64,000 bases of DNA from a virus. The notes beneath the pieces were generated by a model that saw only the letters and a program-made list of their open reading frames with translations, searched no databases and had not been told where the DNA came from. The stretch's first letter is position 1; every line of letters begins with the position of its first letter. Location: IMG/VR virus record IMGVR_UViG_3300048583_000274, positions 1 to 64,000 of that record, one strand, 5' to 3'. The position numbers and the translations under genes were made by a program. This document shows positions 2,854 to 43,928 of this stretch, piece after piece.

Positions 2854-3061
2854 TGTGTTTTTTGTTAAAATATCTTCTTAAAAAATAACCTCTCAAAAAA
2901 GAAGCTACAAAAAAGATAAAAGTTAAAGTTAAGTTCTGCTTAAAAGTAACAGGAATACCCATTATTGGATAAACTATAATTTGAATAAGAAGACTCACTA
3001 AAAGGCCTACTACTACATTAACAATTGACTCTATAGTAGATTGTTTCTTAGTTTGCCCCAT
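2840..3061 (-). CDS. small membrane protein
   Basis: 73 aa with two hydrophobic helices. Its ATG overlaps the TAA of the ligase-remnant frame (TAATG). Confidence 0.5.
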   Translation of the reverse strand: MGQTKKQSTIESIVNVVVGLLVSLLIQIIVYPIMGIPVTFKQNLTLTFIFFVASFLRGYFLRRYFNKKHNEKN

Positions 3062-3093
3062 TACTTGTCAAATCTAAAACCAACACACACAGA
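3061..3093 (-). pseudogene. remnant of a DNA ligase 3' end (SVCVGFRFDK-stop)
   Basis: The minus-strand frame reads tct gtg tgt gtt ggt ttt aga ttt gac aag taa. It duplicates the ligase C-terminus PVCVGFRID-stop (3906-3935), with 14/15 nt identical over gtN tgt gtt ggt ttt followed by synonymous divergence (aga vs cgc for Arg). Confidence 0.55.
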
Positions 3094-3094
3094 A

Positions 3095-3847
3095 TCATTC
3101 TTTCCACCAATTAAGTACTTCTTTTGAGTACTGTCTAAATTCTTCATATTTTTCAATGTATTTAATTAAAGTTTGACATTTTTCTTTTTTTTCTATTAAA
3201 AAAGGCTCTACACTTTTTAAAAAAGGTAGTATAGATGCTGTAGTATTTTGCCAAGAATAGGTTTGTACATGAGATTGATAGTCATATACTTTACAGGTGT
3301 GGGTTTGGCTTCCTTCAAACCTATTCATATAGTCAATTAAAGGTTTGTATCTTTGTTGTAATCCTATTGAGTATTTGTTGTAAAAAGAAACCCCTTTACC
3401 TGCATTAAACATACTTAACCAACCATCTCCATCAATAATACCTGCTAGATATTGAAAAGAAAGTTCTCCATTAATAGAGTGTTCAAAATTTGTTTTAGCT
3501 ATTAGATACTTTCTATAACAAATCTCTTTATCTTCTCCTTCAATTAAACCTTTAATAGTTTCAAGTTGTAATCTTTTTTCATTTAAAAAAGGGAGCATAT
3601 CAGGAATAAAAGAACTTTCTCTTAACTGCTTACCATTAAGTGTAGCATAGTAAGCTGTTTGTCTATTTATCCCTCTTTCAGAAATTTTAATTTCAAGATT
3701 ATATTGAGAGGCAAATAATTTAACTATTTTAAAACTACACATATAAAGCCTACATTCATAAGTATAAGAATAGTTATTGCCACTCATTGTTTTTCTTATT
3801 CTGATGTATCCTTCAGAGTCAAAAATTCCTGCTAAATATTGTATCAT
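3095..3847 (-). CDS. LAGLIDADG homing endonuclease (double-motif)
   Basis: Two LAGLIDADG motifs: YLAGIFDSEGYI near the N-terminus and YLAGIIDGDGWL at about residue 133. It is free-standing between the ligase gene and the ligase remnant. Confidence 0.85.
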   Translation of the reverse strand: MIQYLAGIFDSEGYIRIRKTMSGNNYSYTYECRLYMCSFKIVKLFASQYNLEIKISERGINRQTAYYATLNGKQLRESSFIPDMLPFLNEKRLQLETIKGLIEGEDKEICYRKYLIAKTNFEHSINGELSFQYLAGIIDGDGWLSMFNAGKGVSFYNKYSIGLQQRYKPLIDYMNRFEGSQTHTCKVYDYQSHVQTYSWQNTTASILPFLKSVEPFLIEKKEKCQTLIKYIEKYEEFRQYSKEVLNWWKE

Positions 3848-3905: not shown

Positions 3906-4964
3906 TTAATCTATGCGAAAACCAACACATACTGGAAAGCGAGGTAAGCCTCCATCAGTGTACTCAAAGAATCTTACTTCAGCAGTTTGCCCAATAAAGT
4001 TTTCTTTGTCTCTAAGAATTACTTCTCTAGATTCATGACTGAATTTCATTCCACAATTAAATCTAGTTCCGGCTCTTACAGAATAGCAAACTACAACTCC
4101 TTGTTCAGGTCTACTTTCAGAAGGAATTACATCAACTATTTCATAAGTTTCATCAATGAAATCTTTGTATTTCAACAATTGAGAGCTTCTCTTATTTACA
4201 GCATACCCTTCTTCAGAGTGTCTAATCATGGTACCTTCATAACCTTGAGCAAGGTATTGTTGATGAACTTCAATAAGCTCAGCTTCATTATGAATTCTCT
4301 GAGTATGTACTAATTCAACATGATTTAAACCTTGGATTAAGTTTGCTACTGTCAAGTATCTTTCAGCAAAAGGAGCATCCATAACCATATCATAAACATG
4401 GTATTTTACTTTTTCAGTCTCTCCTGTTCTGTATTTTTTGATAAGTTTCATATTCTCTTGGAAGGATATTCCATGTGCATATAATTCTCCATCTAAAACA
4501 CAGCCATCAAGGTCTCCAAGATTAATATGATTAAGAGTATCTATAACCTTACCGGTTCTAGAAATAAGGTGTTCCTCAGTCCCTAATGACCTCATACCAT
4601 CTAGCTTAGGTTGTACATAACAAGGAAACTTAACTTTTTTAGCTTCTTTTTTGTAATCCTTAGCTAGCATAGGAAGTAAGAAATCTACTCCTCCTTTTTC
4701 CTGAGCTTCTTCAATAGTATAAAAATACCCTAATCTTCTCTTTTCATCAAGCTTAGCTCTTGCTTCTAACATAGCTTGATGTTCAGGAGTAGTAGCATTG
4801 CTTTTACCTACATTCTTGGCTTCACAAGCACTCCTATTGATTACAGGATTATTTGTACCTACTACACCTGACTCTTGGACTACAAAATTACCTTCATGTG
4901 AAATATGAAGATATCTGATTTTACCACTTGAGTCTTTTTTATAAATTCTTTGATCTATAATCAT
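3906..4964 (-). CDS. ATP-dependent DNA ligase
   Basis: Nucleotidyltransferase motif I PKLDGMRS (KxDG), plus LDGELY, EGTMIR and LLKYK motifs. The 352-aa size is typical of minimal phage/viral ligases. Confidence 0.85.
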   Translation of the reverse strand: MIIDQRIYKKDSSGKIRYLHISHEGNFVVQESGVVGTNNPVINRSACEAKNVGKSNATTPEHQAMLEARAKLDEKRRLGYFYTIEEAQEKGGVDFLLPMLAKDYKKEAKKVKFPCYVQPKLDGMRSLGTEEHLISRTGKVIDTLNHINLGDLDGCVLDGELYAHGISFQENMKLIKKYRTGETEKVKYHVYDMVMDAPFAERYLTVANLIQGLNHVELVHTQRIHNEAELIEVHQQYLAQGYEGTMIRHSEEGYAVNKRSSQLLKYKDFIDETYEIVDVIPSESRPEQGVVVCYSVRAGTRFNCGMKFSHESREVILRDKENFIGQTAEVRFFEYTDGGLPRFPVCVGFRID

Positions 4965-4994
4965 TTATTAACTTTTTAAATTTGTTTTTAATAA

Positions 4995-5345
4995 TTATTC
5001 TATAGAATGTTTTTTACAAGTAAAAATTGTCCCTAAGCTTCCATTTTCAAAAGCTTCTGTCCCTTCTTTTCCACAAAGATAACATCTATTTTCAGGCACT
5101 TTTAATCCTAGTTGTCTGCTAGTTTCATCAATAGAATTTAAGAGAACTAATCTAGCTTCCATGATATTATCCCAAAGTTTTATTTCAGTAGGAGTAAGGC
5201 TTCTTTTTTGAATAGGCTTAGGAAGTCCTACAAGCACAAATTTAAAATAAGCCCTATCTTTTTGAAGTTGTTGTTTCTCTGTCATAATTAATGAATATAA
5301 ATTGGTAAAGGTTCTTCTCCAATAGTTACAATCATCCATTGGCAA
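4995..5345 (-). CDS. hypothetical protein with CxxC...CxxH cluster
   Basis: The probable real start is the internal Met (MTEKQQ, ATG at 5285), directly after the upstream stop. The C-terminus carries CYLCGKEG...FTCKKH. Confidence 0.45.
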   Translation of the reverse strand: MPMDDCNYWRRTFTNLYSLIMTEKQQLQKDRAYFKFVLVGLPKPIQKRSLTPTEIKLWDNIMEARLVLLNSIDETSRQLGLKVPENRCYLCGKEGTEAFENGSLGTIFTCKKHSIE

Positions 5346-25486: not shown

Positions 25487-25749
25487 GATAAATACGTGTT
25501 AGGTTTATAGTAGACAGATAAGACAATTACCTCAACTTCTATAGTAATGTTATGTTTTTTAAACTCTTTAAGAGTATTTTTAAAGATAATGTTCTCTTTG
25601 TCTGTGATATAGACTAAAGGAATATGGAATTGACTGTACATTTCTTCTTCTATTGCAGTTTGAGGGACTCCTTTTTCAAAAGCAAGAGGAATGCCTAAAC
25701 TAAATTGGAAAAAATCTCTGTAGTCATAAGGTTTAGTGAGCTTCGGCAT
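25483..25749 (-). CDS. hypothetical protein
   Basis: 88-aa ORF overlapping both neighbours by a few nt. Confidence 0.45.
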   Translation of the reverse strand: MPKLTKPYDYRDFFQFSLGIPLAFEKGVPQTAIEEEMYSQFHIPLVYITDKENIIFKNTLKEFKKHNITIEVEVIVLSVYYKPNTYLS

Positions 25750-26518
25750 AATCTATTGTGCTTATAAAATCTAAAGTTCTACATTCAGTAGATCCATTAA
25801 ATTCAATTAAAGGTTTATATTTTAAATTTTTAGAATTCTTAAGCATAATATTTTCAAGATCAAAGATATAACTAGGATTATCAGAAGAGATTACTTTTAA
25901 AACTTCATATTGATAAGGCATTCTATTAATTGTAGTGTATCTTCTTTTTAAACTTTTAGAAGTAATACCAATTTTAATAAACTCTTCAGTTTCACTCCAA
26001 CATCTAATAATATAAAGAATAGCAATTTTATCTTGGCATCTTTTTATCCAATTGGTTTTATTCCAACCAAGATTATTATTTAAAGATAATTTTCTTTTTC
26101 CTGTAATACTACTGCATTTCTTACAATTAGCTTTTTTAGATAGATGAGAGTTAGGAGAGATTAAAAACTCTCCGTGTATTCTACAATTGATTTTAACTTT
26201 ATCATGAGCAGAATTCCCATAATTTGTAACAGAATAATCATATCTATTTTTATGAATTTTTTTAGCTTTTTCAATAAAATTTTCTGTAGTATCTTTTTGT
26301 CTTTGTTGTTGTCTTTCAAAGGCACATTTAGAACATCCTTGTTTTCTAGTAATATGCATATGAGGACTAACCTGAAAATCTCCATGTTTATCACAAATTA
26401 CAATCACTTTAGTATGCATAGCTTTATAAGCTACTTTCTCATAATGATACAAATTTTCATGTATTTCTAGAAATAAAAGTATAATTGTTTCTGTAGTATA
26501 TCTTTTTCTTTTCATCAT
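25733..26518 (-). CDS. GIY-YIG-superfamily (T5orf172-like) endonuclease with duplicated zinc-ribbon modules
   Basis: Two repeats, CDKHGDFQVSPHMHITRKQGCSKC and CRIHGEFLISPNSHLSKKANCKKC, followed by ILYIIRCWSETEEFIKIGITSKSLKRRY. Confidence 0.6.
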   Translation of the reverse strand: MMKRKRYTTETIILLFLEIHENLYHYEKVAYKAMHTKVIVICDKHGDFQVSPHMHITRKQGCSKCAFERQQQRQKDTTENFIEKAKKIHKNRYDYSVTNYGNSAHDKVKINCRIHGEFLISPNSHLSKKANCKKCSSITGKRKLSLNNNLGWNKTNWIKRCQDKIAILYIIRCWSETEEFIKIGITSKSLKRRYTTINRMPYQYEVLKVISSDNPSYIFDLENIMLKNSKNLKYKPLIEFNGSTECRTLDFISTIDYAEAH

Positions 26519-30503: not shown

Positions 30504-31214
30504 TTAAAGGACTTCTTGAGCCACTGTATGGCTAGTTTGCACTAAACCTAATTCAGCAGCAATAGTCGGTGTTGCAAAGAAATCAGAAGCATCTTCTGTT
30601 CTCATGTCTTGGTCAGCAGTAGCTACATTTTTGTAGAAAGTAGCTTTGTACTGAGGTTTACCATTGGCATCTGTAATCAGTTTACCGGCCATTTCATGTC
30701 CTACAGGATATCTTACAACTTGACTATCTGCAATGATAGCTTGAGTAGTAAGACCTTGCTCAATAGCATAAACTTGATCATTTGACAAAATTGGTTTGTT
30801 ACCAAGAATTCTGTAAATACAAGCATCTTTCAAGCTACTAATTTTAGCTTGAACACTTTCTGCTGTACTACCTGCTGGAACCGGAATCCATGCTACTCTA
30901 GTTTCTTGAGAAACATACTCTTGTTCTTTAAAATCAAATTCACTAGTCCCAAAAGGATTGTCCTTAAGATTGTTGCTTACAGATTTTGATGGATAAAAAC
31001 TCTTAGTTTCTATAATCTGTTTTACTTCAGCAGTTAAAGTACCTTCTTTTTGGTAATTAGCAGTGTACACTCTTGAAACTGCTAATGGGCTCTTTTGAAC
31101 TTCTTTTCTTACTCTTGGAGCTGTTGGTGTTGAAACTTGTGTTTCCATAATGTGTAATAAATAAATGATTGAATGCCTTAAGTAATTGATAGGAAGGTAA
31201 TAACCTATTATCAC
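30504..31214 (-). CDS. hypothetical protein (monocistronic unit)
   Basis: The probable start is METQVST (ATG at 31148, 214 aa). It is followed by a strong terminator and is the first gene of the leftward module. Confidence 0.55.
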   Translation of the reverse strand: MIIGYYLPINYLRHSIIYLLHIMETQVSTPTAPRVRKEVQKSPLAVSRVYTANYQKEGTLTAEVKQIIETKSFYPSKSVSNNLKDNPFGTSEFDFKEQEYVSQETRVAWIPVPAGSTAESVQAKISSLKDACIYRILGNKPILSNDQVYAIEQGLTTQAIIADSQVVRYPVGHEMAGKLITDANGKPQYKATFYKNVATADQDMRTEDASDFFATPTIAAELGLVQTSHTVAQEVL

Positions 31215-31415
31215 TTAAAGCTTTGATTTGAATTTTTGATTTACCTTTTTGTTTAAAAAAACTATAGAGGTTTTGATAAGACTGCTACGAGTTAACTTAC
31301 TTACTATAGCCCAAAATAAGGGAGCTTTACAGGGCTTTGCTGTCGGGCTCTAAAGTATTAAAATACTTTTTTGGCACTGCAGAGGTTACCTCCTAAGTAT
31401 TGCTTATTTTTGTAG

Positions 31416-31883
31416 TGGAGTAGCGGAGAGTTGAACTCCGGTCCAAACTACTTCCTTCTTAAGAATTTATACAGCTTTTTGTTTCCAAAGTAATTTTAGC
31501 TCTGATGGAAACACTGAAGAGCACTCTTGTATCTTTTAATTCTGCTAGAATAGTGCAAGAATGTGTCTAGTAAACTAGTCACTGAGGGTCAACTGTGTTA
31601 CGAGTTAACTTCCACCACCATAGTTTTTTACCCTAAGCTATGGAAAAAGGGAGTATTAATCATGCTTATCTAGGACTAAGCTGCCTCAGCTAACTCTACT
31701 TCTTGTGAAGCAGAAACTAAATCATCTTCTCCATTAAGGATATTATGAACTACAGTCATATTAGCTTGTACTTGGGAATTCTCTAAAATGTTGTCATTTA
31801 TTAAGTTCACCTTAGTTTTTAAGGGTTATCTCTCCCTGCTGATTCTTAAAAATTCACATAACCTGTCAAAACCTGTCTACCCC
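31416..31883 (-). ncRNA. ssrA: tmRNA (transfer-messenger RNA)
   Basis: The minus-strand 5' end is GGGGUAGACAGGUUUUGACAGG. The 3' end is UUUGGAC-CGGAG-UUCAACU-CUCCG-CUACUCC-A. The acceptor stem GGGGUAG/CUACUCC has a G3:U70 wobble and the T-loop is canonical. P2 pairing joins nt 32-42 with 31456-31466. The internal tag frame ends VELAEAA-UAG (stop at 31676-31678). CCA is not encoded. Confidence 0.85.
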
Positions 31884-32465
31884 AAAAATGCTTGTCTTTC
31901 CAAGCTGTCAAGCTACTTAGCTAATGATTTCACCCTGTTATGGAAATTTGTTTTCCCGCCATAAACCTTCAGGGCTTGGTGTGTGTCCTATCTGATTACT
32001 CCACACATTCACACTAGTCAGATGAATAATAAGATAAAGTTTTAATCTTGTTTATACACTACTTAGGGTATCAGTTTAGAAGGCTGAGCCAATTCAGTGA
32101 TCAGGAATAGTGATTGCAAGATTTCCTGAAGCTTTTTCTTGCTGATTAAAACTTTAAAAGGTAACCTTTAGAAATGTGGTAGCATAGCTCTCTTGTCAAA
32201 TAAGGATTAAGCCTTATAAGATGTAACAGCAATCTGCATCCACTCCTTCCATATCTAATAAGGTCTAAAGGTTAAAAGGTAAAACAATTCATATCCGGCT
32301 TTTATTACCTAGTGTATCACATGGCTTTCACATAGTCGGTTTTATTAGCTATTGGCTTCAATGAATTGTTTAAATTATTATGATATGGATTAATATAAGT
32401 ACCAAAGGGATGCTGTTAATTACAGTCTGACTCCCTTGGGATACTTACGTTTAATTTAATCCAAC

Positions 32466-34019: not shown

Positions 34020-34547
34020 TTGAGAAACATTTATTATATTTGTTACATGAACAAAGATGTACTAATAGGATACATTAATCAAGGATTAAGTACCTGGAAA
34101 ATTGCTGAAGAGTTAAATACTACTCAACCTAACATTAGATATTGGTTAAAGAAATATAATCTTCAAACTTTAAGAAAAACTAATGATGACAATAATTTAA
34201 AATTATGTCCTAAATGTAAAACATCTAGACCTAAAGATGATTTTTATAAATCAATTAAATCTAGTTCTTACTGCAAGTCTTGTATTATTATTTCTAATAA
34301 AGAGAGACAAAGAAATACTAAACAACTAGCTGTAGAATATAAAGGCGGTAAATGTTCTAAATGTGGATACAATAAATGTATAGCAGTATTAGAGTTTCAT
34401 CATGTTGATCCAAACACTAAAGATAAAGATTACTTTAACTCAAGAGGTGGACTAACAGATAATCTTAAAACTGAGTTAGACAAGTGTGTCCTTCTGTGTG
34501 CAAATTGCCATAGAGAAGAACATCACTCATCAACTACTGACATTTAA
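34020..34547 (+). CDS. HNH homing endonuclease with N-terminal HTH
   Basis: The ATG is at 34047. HTH: LSTWKIAEELNTTQPNIRYWLKKYNL. Zinc-binding pairs: CPKC...CKSC. HNH core: KCSKCGY...LEFHHVDPNTKD...LLCANCHREEHH. It is the only plus-strand gene in the accessory region. Confidence 0.8.
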   Translation: MRNIYYICYMNKDVLIGYINQGLSTWKIAEELNTTQPNIRYWLKKYNLQTLRKTNDDNNLKLCPKCKTSRPKDDFYKSIKSSSYCKSCIIISNKERQRNTKQLAVEYKGGKCSKCGYNKCIAVLEFHHVDPNTKDKDYFNSRGGLTDNLKTELDKCVLLCANCHREEHHSSTTDI

Positions 34548-42818: not shown

Positions 42819-43226
42819 ATGGTAATCTATAAAAATACAGAGGTACCTATTTATTGTGGAAGATTGCATATAGCTATCTCTACAGATTTTAAAGAAGATA
42901 TTCCTAAATTGAATAAACTCTTTAAAGAAAATTTTACTATGGAAAATGATGTATTAGGAATGTCTCAAAAAAGAGGACATCATAATTTGGTCATTATCAA
43001 TGTAGACAAACATATTAGAGCTTTTAAAAGTTCTAAACTATTAGAGACAGAAGTTATAGCTACTATTTCACATGAAGCTATTCATACTTGTAACACTATT
43101 TTTAGAGATAAAGGAATAAAACTAGATGTAGATAATGATGAACCTCAAGCTTATTTAGTAGATTGGTTAGTAAAACAAATTTATTGGGAATACTTAAAAA
43201 CAAAAGAAAATGGCAAAGTTATTTAG
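42819..43226 (+). CDS. putative HExxH zinc metallopeptidase-like protein
   Basis: A single HExxH motif (ISHEAIHTCN) in a 135-aa protein. Confidence 0.35.
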   Translation: MVIYKNTEVPIYCGRLHIAISTDFKEDIPKLNKLFKENFTMENDVLGMSQKRGHHNLVIINVDKHIRAFKSSKLLETEVIATISHEAIHTCNTIFRDKGIKLDVDNDEPQAYLVDWLVKQIYWEYLKTKENGKVI

Positions 43227-43358
43227 AATGTACATAGGACACTTATATATTAATTTTCAGATAGGAGTTAATATTATTGGACTACCTGAGTTTCATACTC
43301 ATGGTATCATTATTTCTAAACAGATAAAAGAAACTGATTTACACAAATACCAATAATT

Positions 43359-43928
43359 ATGAGTTTACTATTTACAATAGAGAATAAAGTAGTAAAGCCT
43401 TATACTGAGACCTTACTAATTTCTCCTTTTAAAGAGATATGGGAGAGAGACACAAATCCGGGAAAGTTTATTGCAATTGATGAGTTTACTTATATTGAGT
43501 TTATGACTTCAGTAAAGAAAAGTAATCCTTATAAAGGGTATCAAGAAGAGGAAAGGGCCCGGAGACTTGCTCTAGACATTATGAAGCATGAAGGATATAT
43601 TCCTGATGATCTAGTTAAAAAAGGCATGCAAGTTCTTGTAGACTTTCAAGCTTCTGCTTCAGTGACTTATAATTACTATATGTCAGTAAAGAATGCCATC
43701 TACAAAGTACAGACTTTCTTTAATACTTTTGACTTAAATGAGAAGAATGAAAAGACAGGGCTTCCTATTTATAAACCAAAAGATATTACTATGTCTGCTA
43801 CTGACACTGAAAAAGTTCTTCAAAACTTAGCTACTCTTCAAGAAAAAGTAGATAATGAACTTTTTGAAAGTGTAAAAATTAAAGGTCAAAAATCTGTTAG
43901 TATGTTTGCTAACCCTGATACTATGTAA
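43359..43928 (+). CDS. terminase small subunit (positional candidate)
   Basis: 189-aa ORF immediately upstream of the large terminase. No motif support. Confidence 0.35.
   Translation: MSLLFTIENKVVKPYTETLLISPFKEIWERDTNPGKFIAIDEFTYIEFMTSVKKSNPYKGYQEEERARRLALDIMKHEGYIPDDLVKKGMQVLVDFQASASVTYNYYMSVKNAIYKVQTFFNTFDLNEKNEKTGLPIYKPKDITMSATDTEKVLQNLATLQEKVDNELFESVKIKGQKSVSMFANPDTM

Follow-up and report, generated by a model that had tools for sequence, protein, structure and literature searches.

A complete tmRNA gene with a long, conserved tag frame in a crAss-like phage of Flavobacteria

Results

The tmRNA locus and its neighbourhood

The DNA analysed here (the window; 64,000 nucleotides, positions 1 to 64,000 of IMG/VR record IMGVR_UViG_3300048583_000274) belongs to a crAss-like phage of Flavobacteria, whose capsid protein is 82.7% identical to that of Flavobacterium psychrophilum phage FpV4. 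Positions 31413-31883 on its minus strand hold a tmRNA (ssrA) gene. Rfam model RF00023 matches exactly this interval over its full length (model positions 1-374 of 374; 66.6 bits against a gathering threshold of 47; E = 9e-24), and homologues are present in Cellulophaga phage phi14:2, in FpV4 and in at least 119 viral contigs. An earlier note on this DNA had proposed a complete tmRNA at this position and suggested a covariance-model search and an ARAGORN run as checks; the covariance model agrees with the proposal, and every pairing that the note named is present, whereas ARAGORN called no gene in the window at default or relaxed thresholds. This negative result is attributable to the sensitivity of a heuristic tool rather than to the loss of a defining property, since ARAGORN detects 63 of 91 unique family members and misses the other 28, about a third. 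Neither point changes nor chimeras between the phi14:2 and window RNAs isolated a single cause of the miss.

As the earlier note had also claimed, the gene is full length, with a replication module (DNA polymerase, helicases) on one side, a virion module (terminase, portal, capsid) on the other and no integrase-family protein among the 82 window ORFs scanned; its position is syntenic with that of an unannotated tmRNA in cultured FpV4. An attachment-site fragment would comprise the 3' part of ssrA only, next to an integrase. Because both halves of the tRNA-like domain, helix P2 and the tag reading frame are all present, the evidence supports a complete one-piece tmRNA gene residing within a phage genome.

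The window contains no tRNA genes, yet has kept the tmRNA. A Pfam search of 62 window ORFs found no SmpB, alanyl-tRNA synthetase, Clp or Lon, and a phmmer search for SmpB in the window, using approximate query sequences, gave a best E value of 0.59; host factors would therefore have to serve the RNA. No gene accompanies the tmRNA consistently: the window protein that recurs most often beside it does so in 21 of 131 loci. The 214-aa protein next to the tmRNA has 255 homologues, all hypothetical, and a good AlphaFold model (pLDDT 81), with no Pfam or PDB sequence match and no recognisable fold in a Foldseek search of the PDB (best E = 0.06). A near-identity BLAST of 24 kb of the window against phages returned no match, and relatives were detected only via protein search and pattern scans.

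Upstream of the gene on the same strand, an element at 31884-32028 is 88% identical to the sequence immediately upstream of the tmRNA in four other loci (L046, L055, L107 and L169) and ends in a terminator-like hairpin (31890-31905) abutting G1 of the tmRNA. It may act as a leader, contain a promoter or represent a small RNA in its own right. Matches to a sigma-70-type promoter consensus were no more frequent than in shuffled sequence. A Bacteroidota -7-like sequence, CATTTTTG, was rejected as a promoter because it overlaps G1, so that transcription would start inside the RNA.

The tRNA-like domain and helix P2 covary across the family

Read from 31883 on the minus strand, the RNA begins GGGGUAGACAGGUUUUGACAGG, and before CCA addition the mature molecule probably spans 31416-31883 (468 nt). 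The 5' strand of the acceptor stem, GGGGUAG (31877-31883), pairs with 31417-31423; the 3' strand CUACUCC and the discriminator A (31416) occupy 31416-31423 and are followed by CUA, so that, as noted earlier, CCA is not encoded. The seven pairs include G3:U70, which is invariant in all 91 unique family copies, while positions 4-6 show five to six Watson-Crick pair types and positions 4-7 carry compensatory changes. The 3' end (31447-31416) reads UUUGGAC-CGGAG-UUCAACU-CUCCG-CUACUCC-A, in agreement with the earlier reading. Within it, the T arm CGGAG-UUCAACU-CUCCG (31424-31440) is 99.8% canonical across the family, with five to six pair types at positions 1-2 and a T loop of the form UUC(G/A)AnU in most members. 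The D-loop analogue GGUUUUGAC (31865-31873), in which UUGA is invariant in alignment A1, carries the same signature as host-type Bacteroidota tmRNAs. The domain combines a tRNA-like T loop with the lack of an anticodon arm.

Helix P2 is formed by 5' strands at 31838-31865 (P2a 31856-31865, P2b 31842-31852 and P2c, CAGC, 31838-31841) and 3' strands at 31443-31475 (GCUG 31472-31475, P2b 31456-31466 and P2a 31443-31452). As predicted from the letters alone, P2b joins nucleotides 32-42 (UUUUUAAGAAU) to AUUCUUAAGAA at 31456-31466 in 11 base pairs with one G-U; across 87 sequences it is 94.5% canonical, compared with 62% in shuffles, and RNAalifold reports many compensatory changes. Acceptor stem, T arm and P2 all covary across the 91 unique copies. 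When the window RNA is folded without constraints, the minimum-free-energy (MFE) structure contains the acceptor stem, T arm and long P2 as well as a hairpin at the tag's stop codon; the energy of the whole molecule is only modestly better than that of shuffles (z = -1.67).

This modest z-score and the silence of ARAGORN on the window are what one would expect if a stretch of AT-rich intergenic DNA, being no tmRNA at all, resembled one by chance. That reading, to which we assign a next to negligible probability, is refuted by the full-length, high-scoring Rfam match, by compensatory changes in three helices among 91 unique homologues and by ARAGORN's own tmRNA calls on most of those homologues.

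A short hairpin at the expected site of pseudoknot 1

Where pseudoknot 1, important in E. coli, would be expected, the RNA has a P3 hairpin, AGGG-AGAGAUAA-CCCU (31822-31837), whose stem covaries in the family (GGG/CCC, CAG/CUG, CCG/CGG and UAG/CUA). Covariation in this region supports only the short hairpin of 3-4 bp; a search for a second pseudoknot 1 stem upstream of the resume codon gave only weak AU/GU helices in AU-rich sequence. Downstream of P3 lies a lineage-specific motif, AACUAAGGUGAA (31806-31817), single-stranded and near-invariant in alignment A1. This motif contains AGGUGA, which is Shine-Dalgarno-like.

The 3' domain (31476-31663), the expected site of PK2-PK4, folds into several hairpins in the MFE structure and keeps blocks of UGGUGG and GACCCU that are conserved in alignment A1. 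In the RF00023 alignment of the window, the pseudoknot helices (PK1-PK4) are non-canonical or deleted. Gene length ranges from 301 to 645 nt across the family, the 3' domain being too variable for a family-wide alignment.

The tag frame encodes a long peptide under selection

The sequence before the tag frame, UUAAUAAAU (31796-31804), fits a family pattern in which (U)UAAA(U/C) precedes the first G-initial codon in 74 of 91 members, and we infer from this context that the resume codon is GAC at 31793-31795; GGC or GGA takes this place in 61 of the 91. From GAC to the stop codon UAG, the frame (31676-31795, minus strand) encodes DNILENSQVQANMTVVHNILNGEDDLVSASQEVELAEAA, a tag of 39 aa. The frame is open family-wide: its 3594 codons in 91 members are free of stops, whereas the two alternative frames contain 528 and 318 over the same span. 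Family tags measure 24-49 aa, and that of the window is about four times the usual size, the commonest tmRNA tag length being 10 aa (PMC11915505).

Within the tag, a peptide core, QVQANMTVVHNIL (31736-31774), follows the near-invariant pattern Q-[VI]-x-A-N-M-x-x-V-x-x-[LI]-[LI]. ANM occurs in 88 of 91 members, accompanied by Q(-3) in 88 of these 88 and by V(+5) in 87, with free synonymous variation. Since searching by the tag core would itself force amino-acid conservation, the homologue set behind these counts was gathered with a tag-independent pattern from the PK1 region. Entropy by codon position (14.8, 12.5 and 21.1) is highest at the third, and pN/pS is 0.42 in the tag frame, with values of 0.94 and 1.25 in the other two, in pairwise comparisons that are non-independent and partly saturated. 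The tag motif is under selection at the peptide level.

Ala-Ala ends 82 of 91 tags. The window tag closes with ...LAEAA-UAG, matching the Ala-Ala-stop ending read by the earlier note; EAA is found in 3 of 91, VAA or LAA being commoner. The most unusual feature of this frame, a 39-aa tag with a lineage-conserved motif, had escaped that note. A hairpin analogous to helix 5 and recovered in the MFE fold, GCUUA-GUCCUAGA-UAAGC (31664-31681), encloses the stop codon of the window tag; in 83 of 91 family members the stop codon lies within a hairpin of at least 4 bp. The window tag is acidic (net charge -8) with only a moderate hydrophobic moment. A search of the tag peptide against 5.8 billion proteins matched nothing but nine very small ORFs wrongly called on this RNA, and thus gave no evidence that it mimics a real protein.

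A conserved Met codon in all 88 motif-bearing members, an AGGUGA upstream of it and the small ORFs repeatedly called over the frame in metagenomes and GenBank could also suggest a dual-function RNA/small-protein gene, in which initiation at the AUG of A-N-M yields a free peptide of about 27 aa and the tRNA-like ends serve stability or processing only. We regard this as very unlikely. The frame is open and conserved before the AUG, at Q(-3), [VI](-2), A and N, the UAAAU|G resume context is no more than a few codons away from its opening, and its end resembles a tmRNA degron. The AGGUGA, for its part, is separated from the AUG by about 45-70 nt, too great a distance for a ribosome-binding site; moreover, Bacteroidota generally do not use Shine-Dalgarno-led initiation.

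A virus-restricted lineage

We define the lineage by a P3 loop AGAGAUAA followed by AACUAAG(G/A)UGAA, together with a tag carrying the 13-residue core pattern given above; the window RNA has both features. The count of at least 119 viral contigs comes from a search anchored on AACUAAGGUGAA. Among isolates, the tmRNA is present in 29 GenBank records of the FpV4 group, where it is 100% conserved and annotated in none, and in Cellulophaga phages phi14:2, phi38:1, phi40:1 and Calle, the last of which has a reported tmRNA (PMC8776804) that belongs to this lineage. RF00023 scores the FpV4 homologue, which occupies KT876724 81947-82361 on the minus strand, at 58.2 bits and that of phi14:2 at 46.0 bits, just below the gathering threshold. 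Most isolate genomes with the gene leave it unannotated or as hypothetical proteins. Across 185,579 bacterial species genomes there was one true lineage match, on a single short contig that is probably mis-binned; the lineage is virus-restricted.

This distribution bears on the idea that the gene is a non-functional passenger, whether a recently captured host ssrA, the remnant of an attachment site or a chimera of assembly. In its favour, ssrA is a frequent integration site for phages and pieces of it are often found in their genomes, host-type tmRNAs were observed at provirus ends and the tRNA-like domain of the window RNA resembles the Bacteroidota type. A passenger nevertheless fits poorly with a full-length gene that has both halves, is flanked on both sides by phage genes in synteny with FpV4 and has no integrase among the 82 ORFs scanned, with a signature found in viral contigs and in just one doubtful bacterial contig, and with covariation and pN/pS values that indicate long-term purifying selection within viruses. 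Completeness, synteny, virus restriction and selection together largely refute this reading, which we now consider barely tenable.

In phi14:2, the tmRNA lies at NC_021806 4031-4500 (+), in one of only two long ORF-poor stretches at the left end of the genome. A transcriptome study of this phage, for which RNA-seq data are in GEO series GSE133609, described two long left-end intergenic regions with rightward transcription that was high and persistent, and called their function unknown. By an indirect argument that rests on reconstructed gene numbering, the phi14:2 tmRNA may be one of these intergenic RNAs.

Discussion

We propose, with a probability of about 80%, that the locus encodes a functional phage one-piece tmRNA that carries out trans-translation in infected Flavobacteriia with host factors. 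The precursor would be trimmed and given its CCA by host enzymes, and host alanyl-tRNA synthetase would charge the RNA through G3:U70 and the A discriminator. Host SmpB and EF-Tu would then carry it to ribosomes stalled on broken or non-stop mRNAs, where translation is predicted to resume at GAC and append the 39-aa tag, so that truncated proteins in infected cells would bear a peptide including ANMTVVHNILNG. Once translation ended at UAG, the ribosome would be released to make phage proteins. Through their C-terminal Ala-Ala, tagged proteins are probably routed to a host protease of the ClpXP type. The internal motif is probably a second element for recognition, for instance by an adaptor or a protease, which might give phage-tagged proteins a fate distinct from that of host-tagged ones; neither gene linkage nor the fold of the adjacent protein yielded a partner for it.

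The same components could be put to another use, with the phage RNA competing with host tmRNA for SmpB and stalled ribosomes. Its tag would replace the 9-aa host degron, altering or blocking the fate of tagged proteins or titrating quality control, and added rescue capacity would be secondary. The tRNA-like domain is close enough to the host type that it should bind the same SmpB, no phage SmpB was found in the window and the tag, with its own conserved motif, is very unlike the host GENNYALAA; a precedent exists in mycobacteriophage DS6A, whose tRNA-like-domain RNA resembles an E. coli tmRNA inhibitor (PMC4131195, PMC11915505). The canonical Ala-Ala degron at the end of most family tags argues against escape from proteolysis, however, and a pure SmpB sponge would need no long frame under peptide-level selection. 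Competition overlaps with rescue, differing only in the effect selected for, and we think it improbable as the main role.

Beyond the proposal of a functional rescue tmRNA, we tentatively advance a broader view, which we rate at somewhat less than even odds: that this lineage is common to crAss-like phages and unrelated podophages infecting Flavobacteriia, that a dedicated factor reads the tag motif so that the phage specifies the fate of rescued products, and that the abundant phi14:2 RNA is the tmRNA. The motif's reader might be an adaptor supplied by host or phage, a protease or even the ribosome.

Phage tmRNAs are already known, and this lineage and its tag motif appear to be undescribed. 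The published accounts of phage tmRNAs that we examined give presence only, leaving the lineage, its virus restriction and the conserved long tag undescribed; no description of the lineage was found in the literature on phage-encoded tmRNA, and a recent Crassvirales review makes no mention of tmRNA. Among phages of Bacteroidota, the crAss-like group and its relatives rank with the most abundant, yet the lineage gene goes mostly unannotated in the isolate genomes that carry it. Pipelines built on ARAGORN miss about a third of the family. A virus-restricted tmRNA with a long, selected tag implies that phages may also specify what becomes of rescued products. The lineage offers an identity for the abundant, unexplained non-coding RNA of the phi14:2 transcriptome, and culturable systems exist in Cellulophaga baltica with phi14:2 and F. 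psychrophilum with FpV4.

Comparison with known tmRNAs

Among known systems, the phage RNA stands closest to bacterial one-piece tmRNA (RF00023), above all to the Bacteroidota type. Host-type Bacteroidota tmRNAs, whose tag is GENNYALAA, also have a 7-bp acceptor stem with G3:U70, an A discriminator and a T arm, and share the GGUUUUGACAG / GUUUGGAC signature in the tRNA-like domain and a long P2; likewise, their tags end in Ala-Ala, their stop codon lies in a hairpin and CCA is not encoded. Translation in the host type resumes at GGC after AAUUAACU, a codon that much of the phage family also has, compared with GAC in the window, a G-initial codon in an A/U-rich context being common to both. The two differ elsewhere: the host tag has 9 aa and lacks the internal motif, against 24-49 aa in the phage lineage; P2c is GCAUG/CAUGU in the host type and CAGC/GCUG in the phage lineage; the classical host pseudoknot 1 (5-6 bp plus 4-7 bp) contrasts with a 3-4-bp hairpin plus AACUAAGGUGAA; and the 3' domain of the phage lineage, unlike that of host-type Bacteroidota tmRNAs, is very variable.

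The earlier note called phage-encoded tmRNAs rare, which is only partly right, as they are documented in mycobacteriophages (the Bxz1 group) and Bacillus phage G (PMC4131195), in huge phages (PMC7162821) and in Calle. Those reported cases resemble the present one in having a complete ssrA in a lytic phage genome, with a presumed role in the rescue of stalled ribosomes during infection; they come from other hosts and phage groups, whereas here the carrier is a crAss-like phage of about 95 kb whose window lacks tRNAs and SmpB. The DS6A mini-tmRNA is also a phage-encoded tmRNA derivative that would meet host SmpB (PMC4131195, PMC11915505). It consists of the tRNA-like domain only, has no tag frame and is thought to inhibit trans-translation, in contrast to the long frame of the window RNA with its peptide-level selection.

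The tag itself can be compared with bipartite ssrA tags. In E. coli and Caulobacter, such tags are read by the SspB adaptor and the ClpXP protease, and the long tags of Mycoplasma (more than about 25 aa) are read by Lon. The window tag has no sequence similarity to the SspB-binding AANDENY or to Mycoplasma tags, and we know of no adaptor in Flavobacteriia or in these phages. As a working analogy, the phage tag may nonetheless share the logic of these systems: a C-terminal degron joined to an upstream segment for a second factor.

Identity and genomic setting of the tmRNA

Comparison of the whole window with Rfam gave a single match above the gathering threshold, the tmRNA model RF00023, at exactly 31413-31883 on the minus strand (66.6 bits against a gathering score of 47, E = 9e-24, model positions 1-374 of 374); the tmRNA observed there is real. 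The features that the earlier note had read by eye are all in place: the minus strand from 31883 starts GGGGUAGACAGGUUUUGACAGG; the 3' end reads UUUGGAC-CGGAG-UUCAACU-CUCCG-CUACUCC-A to 31416 and is followed by CUA, with CCA not encoded; the 7-bp acceptor stem GGGGUAG/CUACUCC includes G3:U70; the T arm is present; and an 11-bp P2b pairs nucleotides 32-42 with window positions 31456-31466. Folding upheld only part of the expected architecture: acceptor stem, P2 and T arm appear in the minimum-free-energy (MFE) fold, and the Rfam alignment backs the tRNA-like domain and P2, with the model's pseudoknot helices non-canonical or deleted in that alignment. The unconstrained MFE fold places the stop codon inside a hairpin, and its energy is modestly below that of shuffled sequences (z = -1.67). 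ARAGORN, which the earlier note had also proposed, called no tmRNA in the window, relaxed thresholds included. Because it likewise missed 28 of 91 unique homologs (detecting 63) and the clear FpV4 homolog, we attribute this negative to a limitation of the tool.

Judged from its gene content, the window is phage. As had been proposed, the tmRNA lies between a replication block (23.6-31.2 kb, minus strand; helicases, endonuclease, DNA polymerase and Dda-like helicase) and a virion block (from 42 kb, plus strand; endolysin, large terminase, portal and major capsid protein). A scan of 82 ORFs revealed neither an integrase nor any SmpB, AlaRS, Clp or Lon family. A match to the crAss tail-ring family came from one ORF, and the capsid protein shares 82.7% identity with its counterparts in FpV4, Fpv1-3 and FPSV, Flavobacterium psychrophilum phages of 88-92 kb; crAss-like Bacteroides phages match it less well. 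The window contains no tRNA genes, and the tmRNA is therefore retained independently of a tRNA set; in some relatives, arrays of 15-24 tRNA genes directly follow the tmRNA (viral contigs L007:7148-10039 and L019:3148-8848). Directly downstream of the window tmRNA lies a gene for a conserved 214-aa protein (30504-31214, minus strand) with 255 homologs, all hypothetical; its AlphaFold model is confident (pLDDT 81), and neither a recognisable family for the protein nor a significant PDB fold match for the model was found. The gene and the tmRNA are syntenic in FpV4 too, and the gene is found in 21 of 131 family loci; across these 131 loci, none of the genes shows consistent linkage to the tmRNA. 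An ORF adjoining the tmRNA has a 100% identical protein on a metagenomic contig.

Homing-type endonuclease genes are interspersed in the replication/early region near the tmRNA (25733-26518, minus strand; 34020-34547, plus strand). The types are HNH and LAGLIDADG-like, the latter a Pfam match at some place in the scanned ORF set, and the corresponding region of FpV4 carries a 'group I intron endonuclease'. Immediately upstream of the tmRNA, about 146 nt (31884-32028, minus strand) are 88% identical to the same place in four other viral contigs (L046, L055, L107 and L169) whose tmRNAs have a different tag subtype. This element ends in a terminator-like hairpin (31890-31905) and a U-tract abutting G1, and two pairs among its few differences look compensatory; it may serve as a leader or a promoter region, or be a small RNA in its own right.

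Distribution of the lineage

A blastn search of the phage collection returned one relative, Cellulophaga phage phi14:2 (Crassvirales, Steigviridae; 73.8% identity), with a match covering the tmRNA 5' domain and reading frame. The phi14:2 tmRNA (KC821624 4031-4500, plus strand) is called by ARAGORN and scores 46 bits in Rfam; its GenBank record has small hypothetical proteins annotated over it. Reached via the gene downstream of the window tmRNA, the syntenic region of FpV4 holds a tmRNA of 58.2 bits in an unannotated 2.3-kb gap (L134:5590-6004, equivalent to KT876724 81947-82361, minus strand), and this FpV4-type tmRNA is 100% conserved in 29 GenBank records and annotated in none of them. Two unrelated Cellulophaga podophages, phi38:1 and phi40:1, have a tmRNA of the same lineage under a hypothetical-protein annotation; a cultured-phage tmRNA at KC821614 26803-27164 falls in this hypothetical-protein group (phi38:1, phi40:1, phi14:2). 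Calle_1-3 also carry it and are the sole records annotating a tmRNA, in Calle_1 at 43002-43361, about 50 nt off the Rfam match at 42950-43311; the Calle tmRNA has been mentioned, without analysis (PMC8776804).

Scanning IMG/VR with a tag-core pattern recovered 25 contigs, which we left out of the selection tests because the pattern forces amino-acid conservation. A tag-independent pattern for the PK1 region, GAGAGATAAC-N(2-9)-ACTAAGRTGAA, matched at least 119 IMG/VR contigs and only three places in prokaryotes (185,579 bacterial and archaeal species, each represented by a single genome). Given these three places against at least 119 viral contigs, the lineage appears essentially restricted to viruses, as seen through one signature that would miss any bacterial relative with a different PK1 region. 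Two of the three places are chance matches with no tmRNA, and the other lies on a 4.9-kb contig that had been placed in the bin of a freshwater Flavobacteriales MAG.

In the phi14:2 transcriptome of Drobysheva et al., two long intergenic regions at the left end (the g004-g005 and g005-g006 junctions) show rightward transcription that exceeds that of most genes already at the earliest time point and does not fall off later; the authors stated that the function of both 'long non-coding RNAs' is unknown. By GenBank features, the phi14:2 left end has only two long ORF-poor plus-strand stretches, 2905-3589 and 3911-4601, and the tmRNA lies inside the second. Matching these stretches to the intergenic regions by position suggests that one of the abundant RNAs is the tmRNA, which would be indirect evidence for its expression. 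The other stretch (about 2905-3589) has no Rfam match.

Constraint on the RNA

Among the tag-independent matches listed, we delimited 111 full-length genes, of which 91 are unique, with lengths of 301-645 nt (median 368). G3:U70, not imposed by the filter, is present in 91 of 91, and CCA is encoded in none. Since canonical pairing in the acceptor stem and T arm was a selection criterion, covariation is the informative result there: each of positions 4-6 in the acceptor stem and 1-2 in the T arm has 5-6 Watson-Crick pair types. P2b, which lay outside the selection criteria, is 94.5% canonical versus 62% with shuffled partners. In an RNAalifold analysis of 16 sequences, T-arm pairs change on both sides in up to 8 of the sequences and P2 pairs in 6-7 of them, and the short P3 stem covaries as well.

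The T loop is unusual (GGCAGUA, UGCAACU) in a few members of the family, namely those at L021:13749-14106 (minus strand), L026 and L014; tRNA-like sequence lies just downstream of the tmRNA in L021 and L026 (Rfam tRNA, 43 bits, at L021:13577-13677). In another relative, a group I intron splits the tmRNA in the T-loop region (L018:10151-10375, plus strand; RF00028, 95.3 bits), and the same interruption, judged by eye, occurs in L008 around 4860-5300. Intron-split tmRNAs are known in bacteria (PMC11915505).

A long tag with a conserved peptide motif

In all family members, a frame that opens at most a few codons away from a conserved (U)UAAA(U/C) context extends to a stop codon, with 0 stops in 3594 codons, compared with 528 and 318 in the other two frames over the same span. 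As first codon beginning with G, 41 sequences have GGC, 20 have GGA and 16, including the window, have GAC. Tags span 24-49 aa (median 35), that of the window being DNILENSQVQANMTVVHNILNGEDDLVSASQEVELAEAA (39 aa); Ala-Ala ends the tag in 82 of 91, and the stop codon sits inside a small hairpin in 83 of 91. A near-universal motif, Q-[VI]-x-A-N-M-x-x-V-x-x-[LI]-[LI], runs through the tags (ANM in 88/91, Q(-3) in 88/88, V(+5) in 87/88), and its codons vary synonymously (GCT/GCA/GCC/GCG, AAC/AAT, GTA/GTT/GTG, and TTA/CTA/TTG/ATC). Entropy at codon positions 1, 2 and 3 is 14.8, 12.5 and 21.1, and pN/pS is 0.42 in frame versus 0.94 and 1.25 in the wrong frames, in a rough Nei-Gojobori estimate with non-independent pairs and partly saturated synonymous sites. 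Motif counts, free synonymous variation, entropy and pN/pS thus indicate that it is the peptide, rather than the RNA sequence, that is conserved. Conservation of the frame also extends 5' of an invariant AUG, which favours translation resuming at the putative tmRNA resume codon over ordinary initiation. Among 5.8 billion searched, no protein other than tmRNA ORFs matched the tag peptide, the only matches being nine tiny mis-called ORFs that overlie this same RNA.

Eleven nucleotides upstream of the putative resume codon, at 31806-31817 (minus strand), lies a near-invariant single-stranded motif of the lineage, AACUAAGGUGAA, within which AGGUGA is complementary to the 3' end of 16S rRNA, like a Shine-Dalgarno (SD) sequence. 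SD pairing is normally not used in Bacteroidota.

Proposed function

The best-supported reading is that the phage supplies ordinary trans-translation run on host factors. Host AlaRS would charge the phage tmRNA, host SmpB and EF-Tu would deliver it, and translation would resume at GAC, add the 39-aa tag and terminate at UAG; the phage would gain because ribosomes that stall on damaged or truncated mRNAs in the infected cell would be recycled. Proteolysis of the tagged products is suggested by the Ala-Ala at their end. The internal motif must act at the peptide level; our tentative idea, held with low confidence, is that it forms a second recognition determinant, by analogy with the logic of SspB-binding segments. 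Neither linkage over 131 loci nor the adjacent 214-aa protein yielded a candidate partner.

Comparison with known tmRNAs

Phage-encoded tmRNAs are already documented (PMC4131195, PMC7162821, PMC8776804) and RefSeq viruses have been processed by the tmRNA database (PMC11915505), so a tmRNA in a phage is unsurprising in itself. In the literature, we found no description of this lineage as such or of its virus restriction, of its presence in crAss-like phages, of a long tag with a conserved peptide motif, or of PK1 replaced by a hairpin and conserved AACUAAGGUGAA.

The Bacteroidota tmRNA tag is GENNYALAA; a pattern for this tag matched IMG/VR at 33 places, of which many are provirus ends. These places supplied our host-type comparison set of 19 unique tmRNAs, one 334 nt long and the others 392-398 nt. 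Host-type and phage-lineage tmRNAs have in common that the tRNA-like domain bears the GGUUUUGACAG / GUUUGGAC signature and that the gene does not encode CCA. In both, the putative resume codon starts with G and follows A/U-rich sequence (AAUUAACU|GGC in host-type tmRNAs, UUAAUUAAAU|GGC in many phage-family members and UUAAUAAAU|GAC in the window). In contrast, the host-type tag is 9 aa rather than 24-49 aa, host-type P2c is GCAUG/CAUGU, unlike that of the phage lineage, and the two-stem host-type PK1 appears to give way in the phage lineage to the hairpin and conserved motif. These features are consistent with a lineage that derives from Bacteroidota ssrA and later diverged in viruses.
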